This document shows, piece by piece, positions 4,395-13,408 of a DNA stretch of 64,000 nucleotides. This stretch comes from Bdellovibrionota bacterium. Lineage in GTDB: Bacteria; Bdellovibrionota_C; UBA2361; OMII01. The translations under genes and the position numbers were made by a program. The notes beneath the pieces are model-generated. The model had not been told where the DNA came from and searched no databases. It was given only the letters and a program-made list of their open reading frames with translations. Numbering within the stretch: position 1 is the stretch's first letter; each line of letters starts with the position of its first letter. Location of the stretch: NCBI GenBank assembly GCA_044356215.1, contig JBIKWQ010000005.1, positions 1,699 through 65,698 on the forward strand, written 5' to 3'.

Positions 4395-5746
4395 AACTCA
4401 GATAGAAACCAGCACACGTACCGATATCCCTCCTCGAACTGCCTAAGGGAGAACGACTCGTTAGGCGAGTGGATATTGTCCTGATCAAGACCGAAACCTA
4501 CCAAGAGTGGCTCTGTTCCTGAAGCTTTAGCGAGCTTAGGAATAATTGGGATGCTGGCTCCATTCCAAATATATACCGGCTTTACCCCGAATCCTTTCTC
4601 TATCGCTCGCTCAGCTACCTTGAGAATCTCTGAATCAACTGACAAGCGTAGCGCTGGTCCACCCACTGAGAGGTCACCAACCTCAACTCTAGTCCCTTCT
4701 GGCGCGACACTCTGGAGATATGAGGCAACTTTATCGAGGGTCTTTTGCGGATCCTGTCCCGCCACCAGTCGCATTGATAACTTGGCTATGCCGTAAGATG
4801 GAATAACGGTTTTGCCACCTGCTCCTTGATATCCTCCACCGATCCCGTTGATCTCAAGCGTAGGTCTAAGGCCCCTTCGTACAAGAGGTTCAAAGCGCGA
4901 CTCTCCTCCGGAGAGCGGCACTCCAAGAAAATCACTCATATGCTTTAGATCTATCGGTGCCGCCGTGACCATATCGATCTCCTGCGCGCTTGGCTCACTA
5001 GATCCATCATAGAATCCGGGCACCGCCACGGATCCATCGTCTTTATGAAGTGATGCTACGATCTTTACCAGCGCCTGAAGTGGATTGCGAACAACTCCAC
5101 CGTACATGCCGGAATGAATATCCATCTTTGGACCATAGACTCGAAGCTCGCAGTGGGCGATACCTCGTAGCCCCATCGTGATCGCTGGCCTTCCCGGCTC
5201 AAGCATATCGGTATCACAAACCATCATGATGTCCGCTTTCAGTTGATCACTCCAGTTAGTGACTTCCGAGTGCAAAGCCTCGCTTCCACTCTCCTCCTCT
5301 CCCTCGATCAAAATCTTTATCGTCGGAAGCTCGATGCCTGAAGCAATCAATGCCTCTATCGCCTTAAAAAAGAAGAACACCTGCCCCTTATTATCCTCAG
5401 CTCCTCGAGCATACATGCGTTCCTCACGGATAGTCCCCTTGAATGGGTCACTCTTCCAGAGGTCAAGCGGATCTACGGGCTGAACATCGTAATGCCCATA
5501 GAACAGAACAGTTGGTTTGCTTGGATCACCTTTGCGCTCAGCGAACACAACCGGGAGGAATTCAGATCTCCAGAGACTCGCCGTAAATCCCAATTTAGAT
5601 AGATGCGACCGCACCCAATCCGCACATGCTTCACAGTCGCTCGTATACGAGGGGTCCGCGCTTATACTTTTAAACGATAGGAACTCCTTCCACTCGGATA
5701 CAAATCGGTCTTGATGCTCTAAAAAATATCGCTGTATTTCCGTCAT
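4391..5746 (-). CDS. M20 family dipeptidase (Dug1/CNDP-like)
   Basis: YGHYDVQP, ARGAEDNKGQ, EGEEESGS, DIHSG, GASIP, NIHSPNE. Start placed at 5746 (AAAAGGGA upstream); stop overlaps the rarA start. Confidence 0.92.
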   Translation of the reverse strand: MTEIQRYFLEHQDRFVSEWKEFLSFKSISADPSYTSDCEACADWVRSHLSKLGFTASLWRSEFLPVVFAERKGDPSKPTVLFYGHYDVQPVDPLDLWKSDPFKGTIREERMYARGAEDNKGQVFFFFKAIEALIASGIELPTIKILIEGEEESGSEALHSEVTNWSDQLKADIMMVCDTDMLEPGRPAITMGLRGIAHCELRVYGPKMDIHSGMYGGVVRNPLQALVKIVASLHKDDGSVAVPGFYDGSSEPSAQEIDMVTAAPIDLKHMSDFLGVPLSGGESRFEPLVRRGLRPTLEINGIGGGYQGAGGKTVIPSYGIAKLSMRLVAGQDPQKTLDKVASYLQSVAPEGTRVEVGDLSVGGPALRLSVDSEILKVAERAIEKGFGVKPVYIWNGASIPIIPKLAKASGTEPLLVGFGLDQDNIHSPNESFSLRQFEEGYRYVCWFLSEL

Positions 5747-5762
5747 AGCGTCCCTTTTAATC

Positions 5763-5941
5763 ATCCTAAAAAGAGCAGTTAAGGAGGATGAAAATGGTGC
5801 AGATGCTCAAAAGCACGCGGGATTTTTGAATTTTTCGGAGCGCAACCCTGGCACCGTCAGGGTGAGCACCGAAAATTCAAAAGCCAAAGTGATTTTGAGC
5901 AGATGCGCCGTTTTCAGACCCGCAACTGCTCTTTTTAGGAT
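5763..5941 (+). repeat. 179-bp imperfect palindromic dispersed element, copy 1
   Basis: 18-bp perfect terminal inverted repeat (ATCCTAAAAAGAGCAGTT / AACTGCTCTTTTTAGGAT); nested inner stems; core nearly identical to the reverse complement of 35032-35210. Confidence 0.92.
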
Positions 5942-6081
5942 CGTTATTACGACATCATGCCACCAAATACGCGATTTTAAAAACAGATAACTACTCACCA
6001 CCCCCAGACATTTATGCCGTTGCGCTCTGCTGACATGAGTGCGATTATTCCACGGTAAAGTTTTAATATAAAATAAGAATT

Positions 6082-6633
6082 ATGAAGACGATCAAAGCAC
6101 TACTATTAACGTCTCTTATAGCCGTATCGGCGACCAATCTCTCAGGTTGCTCATGGTTTAGCTCAGGCAGTGGTGAATCCGAGGATGGCGCGCTATCAGA
6201 GTCAGATCTTGCCGCTCAACGTGAGGGCCGATTTGGGGCTGGAAATATCCCAACCGCCGAGGGCAACGGGATGTTTAGAGATATTCACTTCGGTTTTGAC
6301 TCATACGCAATCGATGGCGCCTCTAGAAACGATCTCGAGGCTAATGCTCGTGTTCTAACCGAGAAGAGTGACCTACGTGTGGTTATCGAGGGACACTGCG
6401 ACGAGCGAGGAACCGCAGAATACAACATGGCCCTGGGCGCTGAGCGTGCACGCGCGGTCAAGTCCGCTTTGGTGGCGCTTGGGATCGGGTCATCGCGGAT
6501 CGATACGATCAGTTACGGAGAGGAGATCCCGCTAGACCCTAGCGGAAGCGAAGAAGCTCACGCCAAGAATCGTCGCGCTCACTTCGCCGCCGGCGGTAAT
6601 AAGGGCGCTGCTAGTAAAGAATCGCGTTATTAA
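6082..6633 (+). CDS. pal: Peptidoglycan-associated lipoprotein (Pal/OmpA_C)
   Basis: Lipobox LSGC; IHFGFDS, VVIEGHCDERGTAEYNMALGAERARAV, TISYGEEIP, KNRRA. Confidence 0.92.
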   Translation: MKTIKALLLTSLIAVSATNLSGCSWFSSGSGESEDGALSESDLAAQREGRFGAGNIPTAEGNGMFRDIHFGFDSYAIDGASRNDLEANARVLTEKSDLRVVIEGHCDERGTAEYNMALGAERARAVKSALVALGIGSSRIDTISYGEEIPLDPSGSEEAHAKNRRAHFAAGGNKGAASKESRY

Positions 6634-6708
6634 CCGAAAAAAGAAGACTCTCGCCGTCCGTGGCATGTATCAGCTTCCATGCTGAACAGTCTTCCATGGC
6701 TCAACGCC

Positions 6709-7227
6709 CTAGGCGCGTGAGCCATGTCCGATTCCTCGGCGCCCCCTCCTTGCTGGGCTAGGTTTTACGACTGCCTTTAACTCTCTCTCGGCTTTTATTT
6801 TTCTCAGCTCATTAGGAAGGCGCCAACCGCCGGAGCGAGGTTGCTCCTCATCGGTGAAGAGCAACTTATTGGAGCACCCGTAATCCTCTAACGCGTCTAT
6901 AAAACTCAGCGTCGCGCGTCGGGCGTACTCAAGGATGAAGAACTTAAGAGATCTGTGTGAGTGAGCCAAAGACCTGCGCAGGTCTCGATCAACTGGCATC
7001 ATGACATCCCCATTCTCCAGGAATGCCGCTCTAAAGCGGGCGCAGAGGTCCTCAACGGTTGTGAGGTTATCCCATTCCATAAGCTCTATAACCCGATGAG
7101 CTTTGGTTCGCTTTCCTTCTCTAAGAACGATAAAGCGGGCGACGAATGCTGTGCGCCTGGCTTTTATTATCTCTTCTTCTGATACTTCTCTACCACCGAA
7201 CTTAACATCAACAACTTCTGTAACCAT
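6709..7227 (-). CDS. Hypothetical protein
   Basis: Protein-like composition; start placed at ATG 7227 with AGGAAG upstream (track start 7320); no family recognised. Confidence 0.7.
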   Translation of the reverse strand: MVTEVVDVKFGGREVSEEEIIKARRTAFVARFIVLREGKRTKAHRVIELMEWDNLTTVEDLCARFRAAFLENGDVMMPVDRDLRRSLAHSHRSLKFFILEYARRATLSFIDALEDYGCSNKLLFTDEEQPRSGGWRLPNELRKIKAERELKAVVKPSPARRGRRGIGHGSRA

Positions 7228-7466
7228 ACCGCAAACTTCCTGTACTGCTAGACTACTTTGGACGAGAAACGGGAATCCTTCCCCTGTCCCACTCGGAACA
7301 GCAGTCGCTCGATGTCTCACACCAGCAAACCACCATTGCCCAGCTAAAATAAGTTTCGGAGCATCCCTAATTTTTCTTAAACGTTATTTTATATGCGGAA
7401 ATTTCTGAGTAGATTTAACAACTTGCACAGCGCCTCTGCGGCACATTATCGCAGTCCCTTTCAAAA

Positions 7467-8660
7467 GTGACTCCGCCGCGGAAGTTTGGTCTAATCAGCG
7501 GATCTATGCCTGGATGCCCTGACAAAATTGAACGATTTACCAAAGACCGGATCGCTGTACTTCAGGACGATCTCGGAGACCTGCAAGCGGTAATAGTAGC
7601 TCCCGCTCAAGAGATCTCAGCGCCAGCGGTGAATCAGATCTTACACATGAGCGGAGGACTAACCTTCGTTGCCCTCTCACCCGAGAGAGCCGCGGCTTTT
7701 ATGCTGTCGCCGATGACGTCCCGAAACGTTAACTCTTCCTCGCTCTCTGCTACGCCACGATTCTCACAACTCACATCAGTAGAAGCTCGTGAAGGAGTCT
7801 CAACAGGAATCAGTGCCGCCGACCGCGCTCGAACGATCGGCATACTCGGGGCGCGAAGCCCTCATCCGCGCGCCTTGGTTAAACCTGGTCACATCTTCCC
7901 AGTCTCGACAAAGACAGGTGGTAGCCTGGTTAAGGCTGAGATACCGGAGGCCGCTTTGGATCTTGTTAAGCTGGCGGGCTTCTCTGATGCTGCGCTCTTC
8001 GTTGACCTGCTCGATCAGAACGGAGCTTTTATAACCGGCGATTCAGTCGCTGAATGGGCGGATAGGAACGCCATTCCGCTAATTTCAATCTCGGAATTGA
8101 TCAGGCACAGGCTGATCAAGGAACCCCTGATAACCAGGATAGCTGAATCATCACTCCCAACTCTGGCTGGCGGAGCTCTTAAGGCGTTCGTTTATCATTC
8201 AAAGATTAACGATGTGGAGCACGTAGCTTTAGTCAAGGGAGAGCTAAAAACCGACGAGCCTGTTTTAACACGAGTTCAGGTCGAAAATACCGTTGCCGAT
8301 GTTTTTGGTGGGGCGAATCCACCAACTAGAGAGCAGATCTCCAACGCCCTTAATGCTCTTAGTGAGAGCGAACGTGGGATACTACTCTACTTAAGACGCG
8401 CGTCACTGAATGAGACATTCGACCCACATGCGGCGAATCTTTCCAAACAAAACCACGATCACGCCGCGCCCCCTGGAATGCGCGAATACGGAGTTGGCGC
8501 GCAGATCCTGAGAGATCTGGGGATCTCAAACATTGAGCTGCTTTCCTCGACTAAGAGAAACTTAATCGGTTTAGATACTTTCGGCATCACAATAGTATCA
8601 CAGCGGGCGATACCGTCACTGAACGCGGCGTCATTGGATTCAATTTCTACGGAGTCATAA
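7467..8660 (+). CDS. RibBA-like two-domain protein (DHBP synthase fold plus GTP cyclohydrolase II fold), both active sites degenerate
   Basis: Retains TGISAADRARTI, PGHIFP, HVALVKG, YGVGAQILRDLGI but lacks RENEGD, RxGHTE and the GCH-II zinc cysteines. Confidence 0.88.
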   Translation: MTPPRKFGLISGSMPGCPDKIERFTKDRIAVLQDDLGDLQAVIVAPAQEISAPAVNQILHMSGGLTFVALSPERAAAFMLSPMTSRNVNSSSLSATPRFSQLTSVEAREGVSTGISAADRARTIGILGARSPHPRALVKPGHIFPVSTKTGGSLVKAEIPEAALDLVKLAGFSDAALFVDLLDQNGAFITGDSVAEWADRNAIPLISISELIRHRLIKEPLITRIAESSLPTLAGGALKAFVYHSKINDVEHVALVKGELKTDEPVLTRVQVENTVADVFGGANPPTREQISNALNALSESERGILLYLRRASLNETFDPHAANLSKQNHDHAAPPGMREYGVGAQILRDLGISNIELLSSTKRNLIGLDTFGITIVSQRAIPSLNAASLDSISTES

Positions 8661-8661
8661 A

Positions 8662-9930
8662 ATGTCTGAGATCACCTTCGCCGATGTAGTTCACCAATCG
8701 ATCTCCTTTTCACAAGAAGATCGCGCCGAACGACTCGTATTAGATCTTATCGACACTCCCTGGTTTCAACGACTAAGAGATATTAGTCAGACAGCCAACA
8801 CACGATTGGTTTATATGTTCTCAGAGCACTCGCGTTTTGGACACTGCATCGGGGTCTCATATCTGGCGAAGTTAGTCTTAGATAGGCTCGCTTCAGCGCA
8901 CCGTAAACAAGTTGAAGCATACAGACCCGCGGTACTTGTAGCAGCGCTGCTGCACGATGTCGGCCACTTGGCGCCTGGCTCACACACCGCCTTTAAAACT
9001 TGGTTCCCCGGGCAACCCGACTCTCACGAGGCTCTGGCGGAGATGGTTATCTCTGGGGATTCCGCGATCTCTAGGCTATGCGATAGTTATGCACCCGACC
9101 TACGCGACCAAGTGATCGCTATTCTAGCCGAGTCGGATCAAGTTCCCGCGTGGACCTGGCAGCTCATATCGGGAGGTGGTTGGAATGTGGACCGAGGTAA
9201 TTGGTCCGCGGTTGATAGCGTTCTGGCCGGTGTTAGTTACGGTAAATACAACATCCCCGCCCTAGCTGACTCAATTGTAATCACGAAAGATGGTCAGCTC
9301 GCCCTGATGGAAAATCGCCTGGACGCGATGATGCACTTCGCGGTATCACGACACGCGATGTATCGACAGGTCTACCAACACCGAGTTCTGCTCGCCTCTG
9401 ATACTATTAATAAGGCCGTTGTAGATCGAGCGCGCGCTCTGGGAGCCGATTCAGTCTTCGCTGACGAAACGATGAGAGAGGCCTTAAACGCCAAGTCAGT
9501 TAACGATCTGTCGATAAGCACTATCTTCGCGATGCGTGAGTCATGGTGGCGTTATCACCTAAGTCGCTGGGCCGCGAGCCAGGATCAGATCTTAAGTGAC
9601 CTAAGCGACCGGATCCTTAACCGCCGCCTCTTTAAAACCGTTCGAACCGACAACGCCAAAAATGGTGGCGCGATTCGTGAGGAAGCTATCGCCGCTCTGA
9701 ATAAATTAGGAATGGATCCTCGATACTATCTGCACGACCTTTCAACTGCGGATGTGCACGCCTCGGATTCAAAACAATCGATGTTAGTTCAACTAGATAA
9801 CGGGGAGGTTATTACATTAGCCCAAGCCGACCCGCTCTTTAACGCGATGGCTTCTGAATCGCGTCAGTCGCAGCGATCGTGGTTGGCGATGCCGAAGGAA
9901 GTTAAGGCTCTGATCGGCCGAACGAGATAG
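8662..9930 (+). CDS. HD-domain phosphohydrolase (SAMHD1/dGTPase-like)
   Basis: LIDTPWFQRLRDISQ, HSRFGHCIGV, ALLHDVGH, VDR, SRHAMYRQVYQH. Confidence 0.88.
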   Translation: MSEITFADVVHQSISFSQEDRAERLVLDLIDTPWFQRLRDISQTANTRLVYMFSEHSRFGHCIGVSYLAKLVLDRLASAHRKQVEAYRPAVLVAALLHDVGHLAPGSHTAFKTWFPGQPDSHEALAEMVISGDSAISRLCDSYAPDLRDQVIAILAESDQVPAWTWQLISGGGWNVDRGNWSAVDSVLAGVSYGKYNIPALADSIVITKDGQLALMENRLDAMMHFAVSRHAMYRQVYQHRVLLASDTINKAVVDRARALGADSVFADETMREALNAKSVNDLSISTIFAMRESWWRYHLSRWAASQDQILSDLSDRILNRRLFKTVRTDNAKNGGAIREEAIAALNKLGMDPRYYLHDLSTADVHASDSKQSMLVQLDNGEVITLAQADPLFNAMASESRQSQRSWLAMPKEVKALIGRTR

Positions 9931-10024
9931 AGCGTTTTCCCATCAATTACAGAGCGTAGGTTTTGTCGCGCGTACCTGTGCTCCGACATACGGGCTCAGT
10001 TCTACTTGGTAGAAACTATCTAAT

Positions 10025-10504
10025 GTGAATACCCTACCTTCATTTGGCTCGATTCTCCTGACTACAGATCTCTCACCTGAGGCATCTAGCGCCTACGCGA
10101 TGGTGGAATCATTACAGCGCACATACAACTCCGCTCTGACTGTGCTGGCCTGCATAGACACCTCCCCCCTCTATCTTGAGGCGAGCGCTGGCACGATCGA
10201 TTCACCTACCGCGATTATATCGCCCGAGGCGCTCCAACGAAGCTATGCTGACGTTGAGGCCTCGCTAAAAAATCTTCTCGCTGAAAACTTTCCAGGGACA
10301 CGCGCTCACTATCATATAATCCAAGCCCCTAGTGCCGTTAAGCATTCAATCGTCACATTCGCTAGCAACAATAAACCGGACCTAATCGTTATGGCCTCTC
10401 ATGGGCGATCTGGTGTCGCTAGGGCGATTATGGGCTCAGTAACCGAGCACGTTTTGCGGCACGCCAAGCTCCCTGTACTTGTAGTCCCGGCTCAGCAGCG
10501 GTAG
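10025..10504 (+). CDS. Universal stress protein (UspA family)
   Basis: ILLTTDLSPEA, DLIVMASHGRSG, IMGSVTEHVLRHAKLPVLVVP. Confidence 0.93.
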   Translation: MNTLPSFGSILLTTDLSPEASSAYAMVESLQRTYNSALTVLACIDTSPLYLEASAGTIDSPTAIISPEALQRSYADVEASLKNLLAENFPGTRAHYHIIQAPSAVKHSIVTFASNNKPDLIVMASHGRSGVARAIMGSVTEHVLRHAKLPVLVVPAQQR

Positions 10505-10518
10505 CATCCCCTCTTGGG

Positions 10519-11481
10519 ATGTCAGCAGATGTTATTACTAAAGCCAGGTACAATCGAACGCTCTATGTAGCGTGCTGGCTTCTTGTTCTTTACACGGTCG
10601 TCATCATCGCCTGGGGCGCCTGGGTTCGCATATCTGGATCTGGGGATGGATGTGGTGATCACTGGCCGCTTTGCAACGGAGCCGCAGTGCCTCTCGGTGC
10701 TCCGAAAAAAACCTGGATTGAGGTCTCTCATCGATATTCGACGGCTCTGTTTGGTGTACTCGTTCTGCTGCAAATTGTGTTTATAAGACTGAAAACAAGC
10801 CAAGGGAACCTCGCGAGACGCTGGGTATGGCTGACACTGTTATTCACACTTACTGAAGCGCTTTTCGGAAGAGCGTTAGTAAAAAATGGCTTGGTAAATG
10901 AAAGCGAGGATCTCGGTCGCTTGATCGTCATGCCTCTTCATCTTTTAAATACCTCCCTGCTGCTATTCTCTGAGGTAGTAACTGCCGAAGGGATTCGCTT
11001 CTTTGATTACGCCAGGTCACCTCTTACTCGAAGGCAAAGGACTAGCCTCGTAGCGATCTTGGTTGGACTCGTGCTGCTTCTAGCAACGGGAGCAATCGCC
11101 GCTCTTGGCTCTCACTTGATGCCATCGAGCTCTTTTGTTCAAGGCTTACAACATGACTTCAGCTCAGATGCTCACCTTGCTGTCCGCCTCCGAGTTATCC
11201 ACCCGCTGCTGGCTCTCTCTATACCAATGCTACTATGGTTTTACCTGGGCAATTCCCCAAGTGAAGTTTCAGATATCAGTCGGCAATCAAAAGGAGCCTA
11301 TCGCCACCTTGCTTGGGGAACTCTAGCCACGATTTTTATCGGGATACTGACGTTAGGGCTGCTATCACCAACTTGGCTCAAATTATCGCACCTCTTAGCC
11401 GCTAATTTTCTGGTGATACTGGCATCCAGAGCGGTATTCCATTCTTTGTGGCGGCCATGGCGCACCGAAAACGGCAACTAG
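10519..11481 (+). CDS. COX15/CtaA family heme A synthase-like membrane protein
   Basis: GCGDHWPLCNG Cys pair, IEVSHR, about 8 TM segments, conserved His residues (PLH, VIHP, LSH). Confidence 0.85.
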   Translation: MSADVITKARYNRTLYVACWLLVLYTVVIIAWGAWVRISGSGDGCGDHWPLCNGAAVPLGAPKKTWIEVSHRYSTALFGVLVLLQIVFIRLKTSQGNLARRWVWLTLLFTLTEALFGRALVKNGLVNESEDLGRLIVMPLHLLNTSLLLFSEVVTAEGIRFFDYARSPLTRRQRTSLVAILVGLVLLLATGAIAALGSHLMPSSSFVQGLQHDFSSDAHLAVRLRVIHPLLALSIPMLLWFYLGNSPSEVSDISRQSKGAYRHLAWGTLATIFIGILTLGLLSPTWLKLSHLLAANFLVILASRAVFHSLWRPWRTENGN

Positions 11482-11556
11482 TCGCATCATACAAGAGCTG
11501 AGAAAGACGACCTCAGCAAAACGCCGTTACGAAAGGTTGGTTTCGTCCGGCCTCGC

Positions 11557-11585
11557 AAGACACAAGTAACGGACTCTGCTAGAAT
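11557..11585 (+). promoter_or_regulatory. Putative sigma70 promoter with extended -10
   Basis: AAGACA (11557-62), 17-bp spacer, TG-C-TAGAAT (11577-85), 11 bp before the ATG at 11597. Confidence 0.35.
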
Positions 11586-11596
11586 CGCGCCAACTT

Positions 11597-13408
11597 ATGA
11601 ACGACAACCAACAAGCATCAGATACCTTGGATTCGGTGCTGGCCCTAGCAAGAGCTTCTTGGGAATCTACCGCCGGAGTTAGGGGCCGCCTCTTCTGTTT
11701 TATCCTCCTTTACGTCCTCGCGTACTCTATAGATTTACTCGTTCCATGGGCTATCGGCTGGATTTTGGGGGTATTTGTCAAAGAGGGGCTGACCGAACAC
11801 GCGATCCAAGAGAGCATGCGCTGGATCGGCTTATATGTCGCGCTTAAAATGGGATACGCCGCCGCCCATCACTTCGGACGGTATTACCAAGGGACAACGG
11901 CTTATGTGGCACGCTTTAAAAAGCTCGAAGAGGTTTTTACAGCGCTAATCTCTTTTCCTCTTAAGTGGCACGTCACTCACCATACTGGCGAGAGCTTAAG
12001 CAAATTAAACCGCTCAGTGGGAGCTATTGAATCAGTTGTTTCCAACTACATCTGGCAGATCATAGACGGCGTGATGAAATTCTTCGCCGCCTCGATCTTG
12101 ATATTCGCTCTCGATGTTGAGGTGGCGATCGCGGTTTTAGTTATGGGGTGCGTCACTGTGGCAGTGATGATTCTTTTTAACGCGCGACTTACCCGTAATA
12201 TCCGTCGCAACAACAGATTCTATGATAAGCTTAATAGAACCTGCGTAGATTACCTCTCGAATATAATCACTGTTAAGACATTACACCTCGAGCAACCGGC
12301 GATCTCCTATCTCACCGACCAACGTGGTGACGGGCTAAAACTCTCGCGCAAGATCTGGAAGTACCAAGAGCTGAAATGGGGTACGATAGCTGTCGGCTAC
12401 AGTTTAGTGATGGGAACATCGCTGTACATCTATTTTGGCAATCAGCGCTCACTCGGTGGTGCCTTTGATGTAGCTCAGGTTTACGTTCTGCTCAATTATC
12501 TCGATCGTATCTTCGCAGCTATCGGATCCTTTACTGGCTACTACGGGGGCATTATTGAGGCGGCGACAGCCTACGATGACGCGTCTAGCGTATTGAAGGG
12601 ATCAAAGCTAATAGCGCCGCCGGTTTTATCGGGAAATCTAAAACCAGACTGGAGCTACCTACAACTTAATGGAGTCGCGTTCTCTTATGGAAGCAACTCC
12701 TCCAACCTTAGAAACCTTTCTTTGAGGATTAAGCGCGGTGAGAAGATCGCCCTAGTTGGGCCAAGCGGCGGGGGAAAATCGACTTTGCTTAAAGTGCTTT
12801 CAGGGATGTTAACCCCGCAAGAGGGAACGGCGACGAGCGATAATGACGCGCCGATAACCTTCGAGGATATCGCTCAGGTCAGCCTCTTAGTCCCTCAAGA
12901 ACCGGAGATATTCTCTGAGACCGTCGATTACAATATTCAATTTGACCAGGATTTCTCAAAGGATCAGATGCGCAAAGCGGTTGAGATCTGCCGCATCGAT
13001 CACATACTTGAGAAGCTATCTAACGGCTGGGATAGCTACCTTGAGGAAGCCGGACTAAACATCTCGGTTGGAGAGCGTCAACGGCTCGCCCTCGCGCGCG
13101 GAATTCTAAGAGTCCCCGGGAAAAATATCCTTCTGCTAGACGAACCAACCTCAAGTCTAGATCCGCTAACAGAGAAACAGATATTTGCCGGGATCCTACA
13201 CGAGTTCAGAGATCTGTGCGTTATTACGGCTTGTCACCGCCTGGCGCTTGTTCCCCTGTTCGACACTATAATTTACGTTAAGGATGGTCGGATCGAGGAG
13301 ATCGGATCTTTTCCAGAGTTGCGCTCGGCTGGCCGCGGCTTCTCGGCGGCCTGGGCTGATTACGAGCGTACTGTAGTTAGTCGGGATGGTAGTAGCGCGG
13401 CGGTCTAA
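11597..13408 (+). CDS. ABC exporter half-transporter (ABCB-like TMD-NBD)
   Basis: TM domain, then GPSGGGKS, VPQEPEIF, ISVGERQRLALAR, LLLDEPTSSLD, ACHRL. Confidence 0.92.
   Translation: MNDNQQASDTLDSVLALARASWESTAGVRGRLFCFILLYVLAYSIDLLVPWAIGWILGVFVKEGLTEHAIQESMRWIGLYVALKMGYAAAHHFGRYYQGTTAYVARFKKLEEVFTALISFPLKWHVTHHTGESLSKLNRSVGAIESVVSNYIWQIIDGVMKFFAASILIFALDVEVAIAVLVMGCVTVAVMILFNARLTRNIRRNNRFYDKLNRTCVDYLSNIITVKTLHLEQPAISYLTDQRGDGLKLSRKIWKYQELKWGTIAVGYSLVMGTSLYIYFGNQRSLGGAFDVAQVYVLLNYLDRIFAAIGSFTGYYGGIIEAATAYDDASSVLKGSKLIAPPVLSGNLKPDWSYLQLNGVAFSYGSNSSNLRNLSLRIKRGEKIALVGPSGGGKSTLLKVLSGMLTPQEGTATSDNDAPITFEDIAQVSLLVPQEPEIFSETVDYNIQFDQDFSKDQMRKAVEICRIDHILEKLSNGWDSYLEEAGLNISVGERQRLALARGILRVPGKNILLLDEPTSSLDPLTEKQIFAGILHEFRDLCVITACHRLALVPLFDTIIYVKDGRIEEIGSFPELRSAGRGFSAAWADYERTVVSRDGSSAAV

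Follow-up and report, generated by a model that had tools for sequence, protein, structure and literature searches.

What does a RibBA homologue do once the catalytic residues of both its domains are gone? A 64,000-nucleotide stretch from a Bdellovibrionota bacterium (assembly GCA_044356215.1, contig JBIKWQ010000005.1, positions 1,699 to 65,698 of the forward strand; hereafter the window) raises this question. Positions 7467..8660 (+) of the window encode a doubly "dead" paralogue of RibBA, the bifunctional enzyme whose 3,4-dihydroxy-2-butanone 4-phosphate (DHBP) synthase and GTP cyclohydrolase II domains serve riboflavin synthesis. We named this paralogue psRibBA. An earlier reading of the DNA letters (the original prediction) had considered both domains catalytically dead and the protein repurposed as a ligand sensor or scaffold. 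Our comparisons agree with the first proposal and argue against the second. The sequence patterns instead suggest that psRibBA is probably not a ligand sensor but the non-catalytic, prozyme-like member of a RibBA heteromer.

A RibBA homologue without own-site catalytic residues

The open frame at 7467..8660 (+) is undamaged and encodes 397 amino acids (aa) from GTG 7467, as had been proposed. This start adds 13 residues that have no counterpart in the orthologues. Because the orthologues begin at the position of Met14, which aligns with their Met1, ATG 7506 (384 aa) is the likelier true start. Pfam recognized a DHBP_synthase domain (PF00926, 128 bits) at aa 21-213 (7527..8105, +) and a GTP_cyclohydro2 domain (PF00925, 120 bits) at aa 224-379 (8136..8603, +). 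The nearest solved structures were Mycobacterium tuberculosis RibA2 (4i14, E=3.8e-43) and Acinetobacter baumannii RibBX (6mnz, E=8.3e-39). An AlphaFold 2 (AF2) model of psRibBA (predicted local distance difference test, pLDDT, 83.8; predicted template modelling score, pTM, 0.82) superposed on 4i14_B with a template modelling (TM) score of 0.87 and also matched 6mnz. On this basis, psRibBA is predicted to be a full-length RibBA homologue with the two-domain architecture and the RibBA fold. It shares fold and domain order with canonical RibBA (M. tuberculosis RibA2, Bacillus subtilis RibA) at approximately 28-30% identity, but it falls under every curated cut-off and lacks the metal, zinc and substrate-phosphate ligands. 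Indeed, its scores against six NCBIfam RibBA equivalogs were all far under the cut-off, the highest being 230 bits vs 569.

We then compared the catalytic columns across 105 canonical RibBAs and 55 members of the psRibBA family. In the DHBP-synthase-like domain, the own-site residues (acidic loop, Cys, and the Arg, Thr and Glu of the phosphate/metal site) are gone. The acidic loop R-E-N-E-G-D, conserved in 101-104 of 105 canonical sequences, is found in essentially none of the 55 psRibBAs, only its Gly recurring (nine sequences). The active-site Cys of GLIC, present in 102/105 canonical sequences, is mostly Phe or Leu in psRibBA, with Cys in 6/55. The canonical R-x-G-x-T-E becomes K/R-x-A-I-P-E: R145 (105/105) is Lys in 34 and Arg in 18 of the 55, and T149 (105/105) is Pro or Ala. 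The C-E pair of loop 3 is replaced by V-D; at E169 (103/105 canonical), psRibBA has Asp in 33 sequences and His in 10, and Glu recurs in few. In the GTP-cyclohydrolase-II-like domain, which resembles the X domain of RibBX, the three zinc cysteines are kept by 92-94 of 105 canonical sequences vs 0/55 psRibBAs, the EGRGIG..Y segment is deleted, and TNNP has changed to (S/T)(S/N)(S/T)x. Former site residues that psRibBA retains are R269, E273, D278, R339, H142 and E161. Every motif replacement quoted in the original prediction holds in this alignment of 105 and 55 sequences, and, judged from these residues, psRibBA cannot by itself catalyse either the DHBP synthase or the GTP cyclohydrolase II reaction.

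At least 120 clusters of psRibBA orthologues (48-80% identity) share 58 invariant columns. Among 124 species genomes of the phylum, all of one class, the family profile matched in 112 (E<=1e-45), and motif inspection left the doubly degenerate form in approximately 103. Every degenerate form fell into a single clade (100% SH-aLRT support, stem of 0.9 substitutions/site) apart from every canonical RibBA; on this tree the psRibBA clade is old and derives from an ancient duplication. Pairwise dN/dS values (NG86) ranged from 0.04 to 0.12, with dS of 1-2.7, i.e., near saturation, and were comparable to those of the two neighbouring genes described below (0.03-0.055 for an HD hydrolase and 0.015-0.08 for an orphan gene). 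These values indicate strong purifying selection and, together with the class-wide conservation, rule out the simple decay that the original prediction had kept as an alternative. A decaying duplicate, a pseudogene in progress, would fit the disappearance of the canonical motifs and the somewhat faster evolution of psRibBA (mean distance 1.24 vs 0.79 for canonical RibBA). However, its frame is intact in some 100 species, and neither the low dN/dS, the 58 invariant columns nor the class-wide clade is expected of a gene in decay, so that we regard this explanation as having a negligible probability.

Complementary degeneration of the two paralogues

DHBP synthase is a dimer whose active site is shared between monomers. 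In Vibrio cholerae, one monomer lines the site with loops 1 (34-41), 2 (82-98) and 3 (175-185), and the second monomer adds loops 4' (103'-111') and 5' (132'-138'); the catalytic residues are Glu39, Glu41 and His154 (PMC5228156). A canonical ribBA was sought elsewhere in the genome that carries the window, and it was found on contig C82 (L001 1013-2685) in the context glyA-nrdR-ribBA. The encoded protein (405 aa) carries every motif, and its two Pfam domains were matched with 242 and 220 bits. The rib genes of this genome are dispersed, since ribD lies 19 kb from ribBA on C82 and ribE is on another contig.

A single clade (99% support), referred to here as core, contains the canonical RibBAs collected from 59 of the phylum's genomes. 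For comparison, we used an outgroup of 79 RibBAs from other phyla, obtained by a motif scan of genome contigs that returned mostly canonical loci. The core RibBAs have kept their own-site residues: R32, E33, E35, D37, C62, R145, T149, E150, C168 and E169 are each present in 59/59, N82 and T88 of loop 2 are at least 90% conserved, and the three cysteines, EGRGIG, Y316 and TNNPxK of the GTP cyclohydrolase II half are found in 58/59. The loops lent to the other monomer show the reverse. In psRibBA, loop 4, the lid loop that would be lent to the partner's DHBP synthase site, reads EGVSTGISAADR (aa 109-120; 7791..7826, +; assigned by alignment and the loop definitions of PMC5228156), and across the family (TTGISAxDR) its G, I, S and R are invariant in 55/55 sequences, with D in 54 and T in 50. 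T102 is present in 75/79 outgroup sequences, 7/59 core RibBAs and 50/55 psRibBAs; the corresponding counts are 74/79, 7/59 and 55/55 for I104, 79/79, 17/59 and 55/55 for S105, and 74/79, 1/59 and 54/55 for D108. By alignment, loop 5 of psRibBA (PGHIFP, aa 140-145; 7884..7901, +) bears the His that would be contributed to the partner's site. This residue, H131, is found in 79/79 outgroup sequences and 55/55 psRibBAs vs 26/59 core RibBAs, the others having Phe, Tyr, Trp, Ser or Asn. Overall, the lent-loop positions are 94-100% conserved in the outgroup and 91-100% in psRibBA.

A motif specific to RibBA in the GTP cyclohydrolase II half, Y-G-x-G-A-Q-I-L..D, behaves in the same way: it is retained by psRibBA, where it aligns as REYGVGAQILRDLG (aa 339-352; 8481..8522, +), and lost by the core RibBAs. 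Conservation in outgroup, core and psRibBA is 79/79, 0/59 and 54/55 for G342, 79/79, 16/59 and 55/55 for G344, and 79/79, 11/59 and 52/55 for Q346. An unbiased scan, run on the 87 columns whose conservation outside the phylum reaches at least 90%, gave 34 columns kept by the canonical protein and lost by psRibBA, 25 kept by both, 20 lost by the canonical protein and kept by psRibBA, and 8 lost by both. psRibBA therefore retains 20/28 (71%) of the columns lost by the canonical protein vs 25/59 (42%) of those still present in that protein (odds ratio 3.4, Fisher p=0.013). In sequence, the degeneration is complementary, the canonical RibBA having kept its own-site residues and lost the lent loops, and psRibBA the reverse.

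This pattern bears directly on the proposal that psRibBA is an autonomous sensor or scaffold binding ribulose 5-phosphate, GTP or flavin in its former active sites. The preserved fold, the former site residues that remain (listed above) and the strong purifying selection are all compatible with such a role. However, loops 1 and 2 of psRibBA are hypervariable in both sequence and length and were modelled with low confidence by AF2, so its own pocket is not under constraint, and psRibBA has lost the phosphate and metal ligands as well as EGRGIG and TNNP, the elements that bind GTP. The retained residues are better explained as contributions to a partner's site, and a sensor would leave the decay of the canonical paralogue unaccounted for. 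We consider this role improbable. Variable own loops, invariant partner-lining loops and their loss from the canonical paralogue together point to psRibBA being a partner subunit that would complete the canonical enzyme.

Co-occurrence with the core RibBA

The distribution of psRibBA follows the type of RibBA in a genome. It accompanies the core RibBA in 57 of the 59 sampled genomes that have one, and the two others are fragmented assemblies in which the HD locus lies at contig ends. In contrast, none of the seven genomes with a non-core RibBA has psRibBA, and loops 4 and 5 are intact in all seven of these RibBAs. Three of them (G055, G098, G097) cluster with Bacillus, Ignavibacteria and Chlorobi sequences, that of G079 clusters with Dehalococcoidia, and those of G094 and G080, and of G052, are basal. 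psRibBA is also absent from all ten genomes without RibBA. The neighbouring HD gene is still present in 7/7 genomes with a non-core RibBA and in 4/10 RibBA-free genomes. A dead paralogue that co-occurs with its catalytic paralogue (57/59 core, 0/7 foreign, 0/10 none) is what is expected of a prozyme. As for the other hallmark, a catalytic paralogue that is impaired and can be complemented by the dead one, the correspondence lies at the sequence level only.

A putative heteromeric RibBA

The residue patterns and the co-occurrence point to a canonical:psRibBA complex and to its activity. By sequence, the canonical copy kept all same-subunit catalytic residues of both domains after the ancient duplication, whereas its lent loops (4 and 5) degenerated together with YGxGAQIL in its GTP cyclohydrolase II half; psRibBA shows the reverse. 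A canonical:psRibBA heterodimer would then have one complete DHBP synthase site, made of canonical loops 1-3 and psRibBA loops 4' and 5', to which psRibBA would probably also bring a contact similar to that of an X domain, and its second site would be dead. The GTP cyclohydrolase II chemistry would be carried by the canonical chain.

Several observations weigh against this model. The physical complex is one that we infer from sequence. In the genus of the window itself, the canonical RibBA keeps the loop-5 His, its loop 4 reads SSGVTARGR, and its homodimer may retain some activity. The role of the lid-loop residues Thr108' and Asp114' in governing metal entry comes from molecular dynamics, not from mutants (PMC5228156). 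The near-invariant operon of psRibBA with the HD gene is not accounted for by a partner subunit. Moreover, the phyletic counts are not phylogenetically independent and correspond to approximately 8-9 loss or replacement events, not to 76 independent genomes. Finally, two genomes, G046 (94% complete) and G088 (90%), carry psRibBA with no canonical DHBP synthase detected, either because the assemblies have gaps or because the two are true exceptions.

Separately, psRibBA was the sole DHBP-synthase-like gene found in G046, and this genome has a 588-aa ORF (L211, G046:C37) that resembles GTP cyclohydrolase II in two stretches, at 142 and 44 bits.

The HD hydrolase and orphan genes beside psRibBA

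The immediate neighbours of psRibBA are an orphan gene and a gene for an HD-domain hydrolase of the EF1143/SAMHD1 family, along with Usp and CtaA. The HD gene (8662..9930, +) has its ATG 1 nt past the psRibBA stop, and its Shine-Dalgarno sequence (GGAG, 8 nt upstream) lies inside the 3' end of psRibBA. The divergent orphan gene (6709..7227, -) encodes a conserved, all-helical protein of 172 aa with a basic tail and accompanies the HD gene throughout the class. We observed the arrangement orphan(-), psRibBA(+), HD(+) in 40 loci from at least 20 families of the order, and psRibBA is also followed by HD in most loci examined from other orders. The HD gene occurs in 117/124 genomes of the phylum and psRibBA was never found without it, while several lineages have HD without psRibBA, the orphan gene then directly adjoining HD (e.g., G052, G097, G061, G062). 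No HD homologue was found beside RibBA in 79 loci of other phyla, which rules out HD adjacency as a general trait of RibBA.

The HD protein, nearly always 422 aa long, is a full-length homologue of Enterococcus faecalis EF1143 (E=3.8e-33), a SAMHD1-like deoxynucleoside triphosphate (dNTP) triphosphohydrolase. With active-site residues mapped from PMC3190883, the metal ligands of the H..HD..D site, R63, H119, H129, Y239 and Y243 are invariant, and L49T, D181N, D186N and Y187W are class-wide changes. Phe or Tyr takes the place of the Glu of the proposed H/E dyad (E122) in 84/86 sequences of this order, whereas 13/17 from other orders have Glu. Two genomes of one family link the HD gene to riboflavin synthesis in another way. 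In G055 and G098 (L126), which have neither psRibBA nor their lineage's own RibBA, HD is followed 10 nt on by a foreign, non-degenerate ribBA, and in G055 (L125 2837-6427) a split ribD, with reductase and deaminase as separate genes, comes next. Together with psRibBA-HD, this makes two different architectures in which HD is co-transcribed with a gene for riboflavin entry.

psRibBA could be an accessory or regulatory subunit of the HD hydrolase that takes no part in riboflavin synthesis and, for example, tunes a (d)NTP triphosphohydrolase. Such a role would explain why the two genes adjoin in nearly all class loci examined, with a 1-nt spacer and the Shine-Dalgarno sequence within psRibBA, and why psRibBA does not occur without HD. 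It would also fit the odd HD active site (the four class-wide changes and, in this order, the replaced dyad Glu), and a dNTPase regulated by a partner has a precedent in Clover CloA/CloB (PMC12265719). The mirror-tree analysis gave partial correlations of 0.53 for psRibBA and HD (canonical RibBA controlled), 0.61 for psRibBA and canonical RibBA, and 0.15 for canonical RibBA and HD (psRibBA controlled). The first value is in line with an HD subunit, yet psRibBA co-varies with both proteins, and this weak evidence does not discriminate between partners. On the other hand, HD persists without psRibBA in at least eight lineages, with orphan and HD adjoining, and the loss of psRibBA follows the RibBA type of the genome, not HD. 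Binding to HD does not explain the invariant lent loops of DHBP synthase or the mirror-image decay of the canonical RibBA, and PADLOC gave no match. We find it unlikely that psRibBA serves HD instead of RibBA, although the two roles are not exclusive.

The operon with a hydrolase and the many invariant polar residues of psRibBA could also indicate a neofunctionalised enzyme with new chemistry, acting in a pathway with HD. However, we see no new set of residues that would make up a coherent catalytic site, neither half has kept its metal site, and the invariant polar residues are ancestral RibBA ones, none being new. This makes a new enzyme a very remote prospect.

We also considered a defence system. 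PADLOC returned no match for psRibBA, HD or the orphan, and the chromosomal context is stable and vertical; we rejected it on these grounds. The orphan protein had no match by Pfam (109 members), by PDB sequence search or by an AF2 model with Foldseek; its gene product could be a regulator of the operon.

Regulation and the possible role of psRibBA dosage

The original prediction noted neither a flavin mononucleotide (FMN) riboswitch nor a rib gene nearby, and our searches concur. No rib gene adjoins psRibBA, no Rfam family matched at E<=1 in positions 5500-11600 of the window, and the divergent intergenic region (7228..7505) had no match to an Rfam family or to the sigma-70 consensus. A riboswitch or other RNA in the psRibBA leader was rejected on these results. 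Of 61 genomes of the order, 60 have no FMN riboswitch (RF00050). The sole match (L215, G052:C44:2921-3078) sits directly upstream of ribBA in G052, a psRibBA-free genome whose RibBA keeps both of these loops (4 and 5) intact.

Because the order lacks this riboswitch and psRibBA sits in a separate operon, we propose, more speculatively, that psRibBA dosage may set the flux into riboflavin synthesis. A wider and distinctly tentative picture would be an obligate heteromeric RibBA throughout the lineage, built from two half-degenerate paralogues, with entry into the pathway set by the dosage of the dead subunit and not by an FMN riboswitch. psRibBA would be expressed, in an operon of its own, with a (d)NTP hydrolase of the SAMHD1 type and under a divergent gene specific to the lineage, and GTP/dNTP pools would be coupled to flavin synthesis. 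Taken as a whole, we hold this picture to be possible but doubtful.

Relation to known systems

RibBX proteins (Shewanella, Acinetobacter 6mnz, Aeromonas, Bradyrhizobium) have the same two-domain RibBA architecture and are the closest relatives of psRibBA in sequence. As aligned with 6mnz, the X domain resembles the C-terminal half of psRibBA: both lack the zinc cysteines and the ring-opening residues and keep GVGAQILRDLG. PMC10012899, citing Brutinel 2013, reports that the activity of RibB is modulated by the X domain. The comparison with RibBX made in the original prediction therefore stands for the C-terminal half. It fails for the N-terminal half, the RibB domain of RibBX being fully active while that of psRibBA has lost its own-site residues as well. 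Furthermore, RibBX is encoded in rib operons, unlike psRibBA, which lies outside any rib cluster beside the HD hydrolase.

In logic, the closest precedent is the deoxyhypusine synthase (DHS) of Trypanosoma brucei, in which a subunit with impaired catalysis forms a complex with a dead one (PMC3663545). As in our proposal, the trypanosomatid prozymes (DHS/DHSp, PMC3663545; AdoMetDC, PMC5201418; PRMT1) pair a dead paralogue with an impaired catalytic one. They differ in being eukaryotic and biochemically shown, whereas psRibBA belongs to a bacterial, bifunctional vitamin-pathway enzyme at the level of a phylum, and its role is deduced from alignments. A literature search found no paper on a doubly degenerate RibBA or on a heteromeric RibBA. 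Plants offer vitamin-pathway paralogues, RIBA2/RIBA3 and the pseudoenzyme PDX1.2, that have lost one or all activities and act with catalytic isoforms; RIBA2 and RIBA3 each retain one activity. We know of no description, for RIBA2/RIBA3 or PDX1.2, of a complementary loss of lent loops in the catalytic partner, and to our knowledge complementary subfunctionalisation within a shared active site has so far come mainly from trypanosomatid prozymes.

If psRibBA is indeed a partner subunit, a phylum-wide bacterial homodimer would have turned into an obligate heterodimer through the complementary loss of own-site and lent residues, a clean natural case of subfunctionalisation inside one shared active site. 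Annotation would also shift: approximately 100 species would have one "RibBA" unable to work alone and another that is probably partner-dependent, and metabolic reconstructions counting either gene alone would therefore mislead. Riboflavin flux would be controlled independently of a riboswitch, with a testable tie between riboflavin synthesis and the SAMHD1-like hydrolase.

One of the non-core RibBAs shows a different division. In G097, the RibBA encoded in an nrdR-ribE-ribBA cluster (L127, 3923-5146) has a dead DHBP synthase half and an intact GTP cyclohydrolase II half, the opposite partition to RibBX, and the same genome encodes a separate stand-alone RibB of 203 aa (G097:C37:14560-15135).

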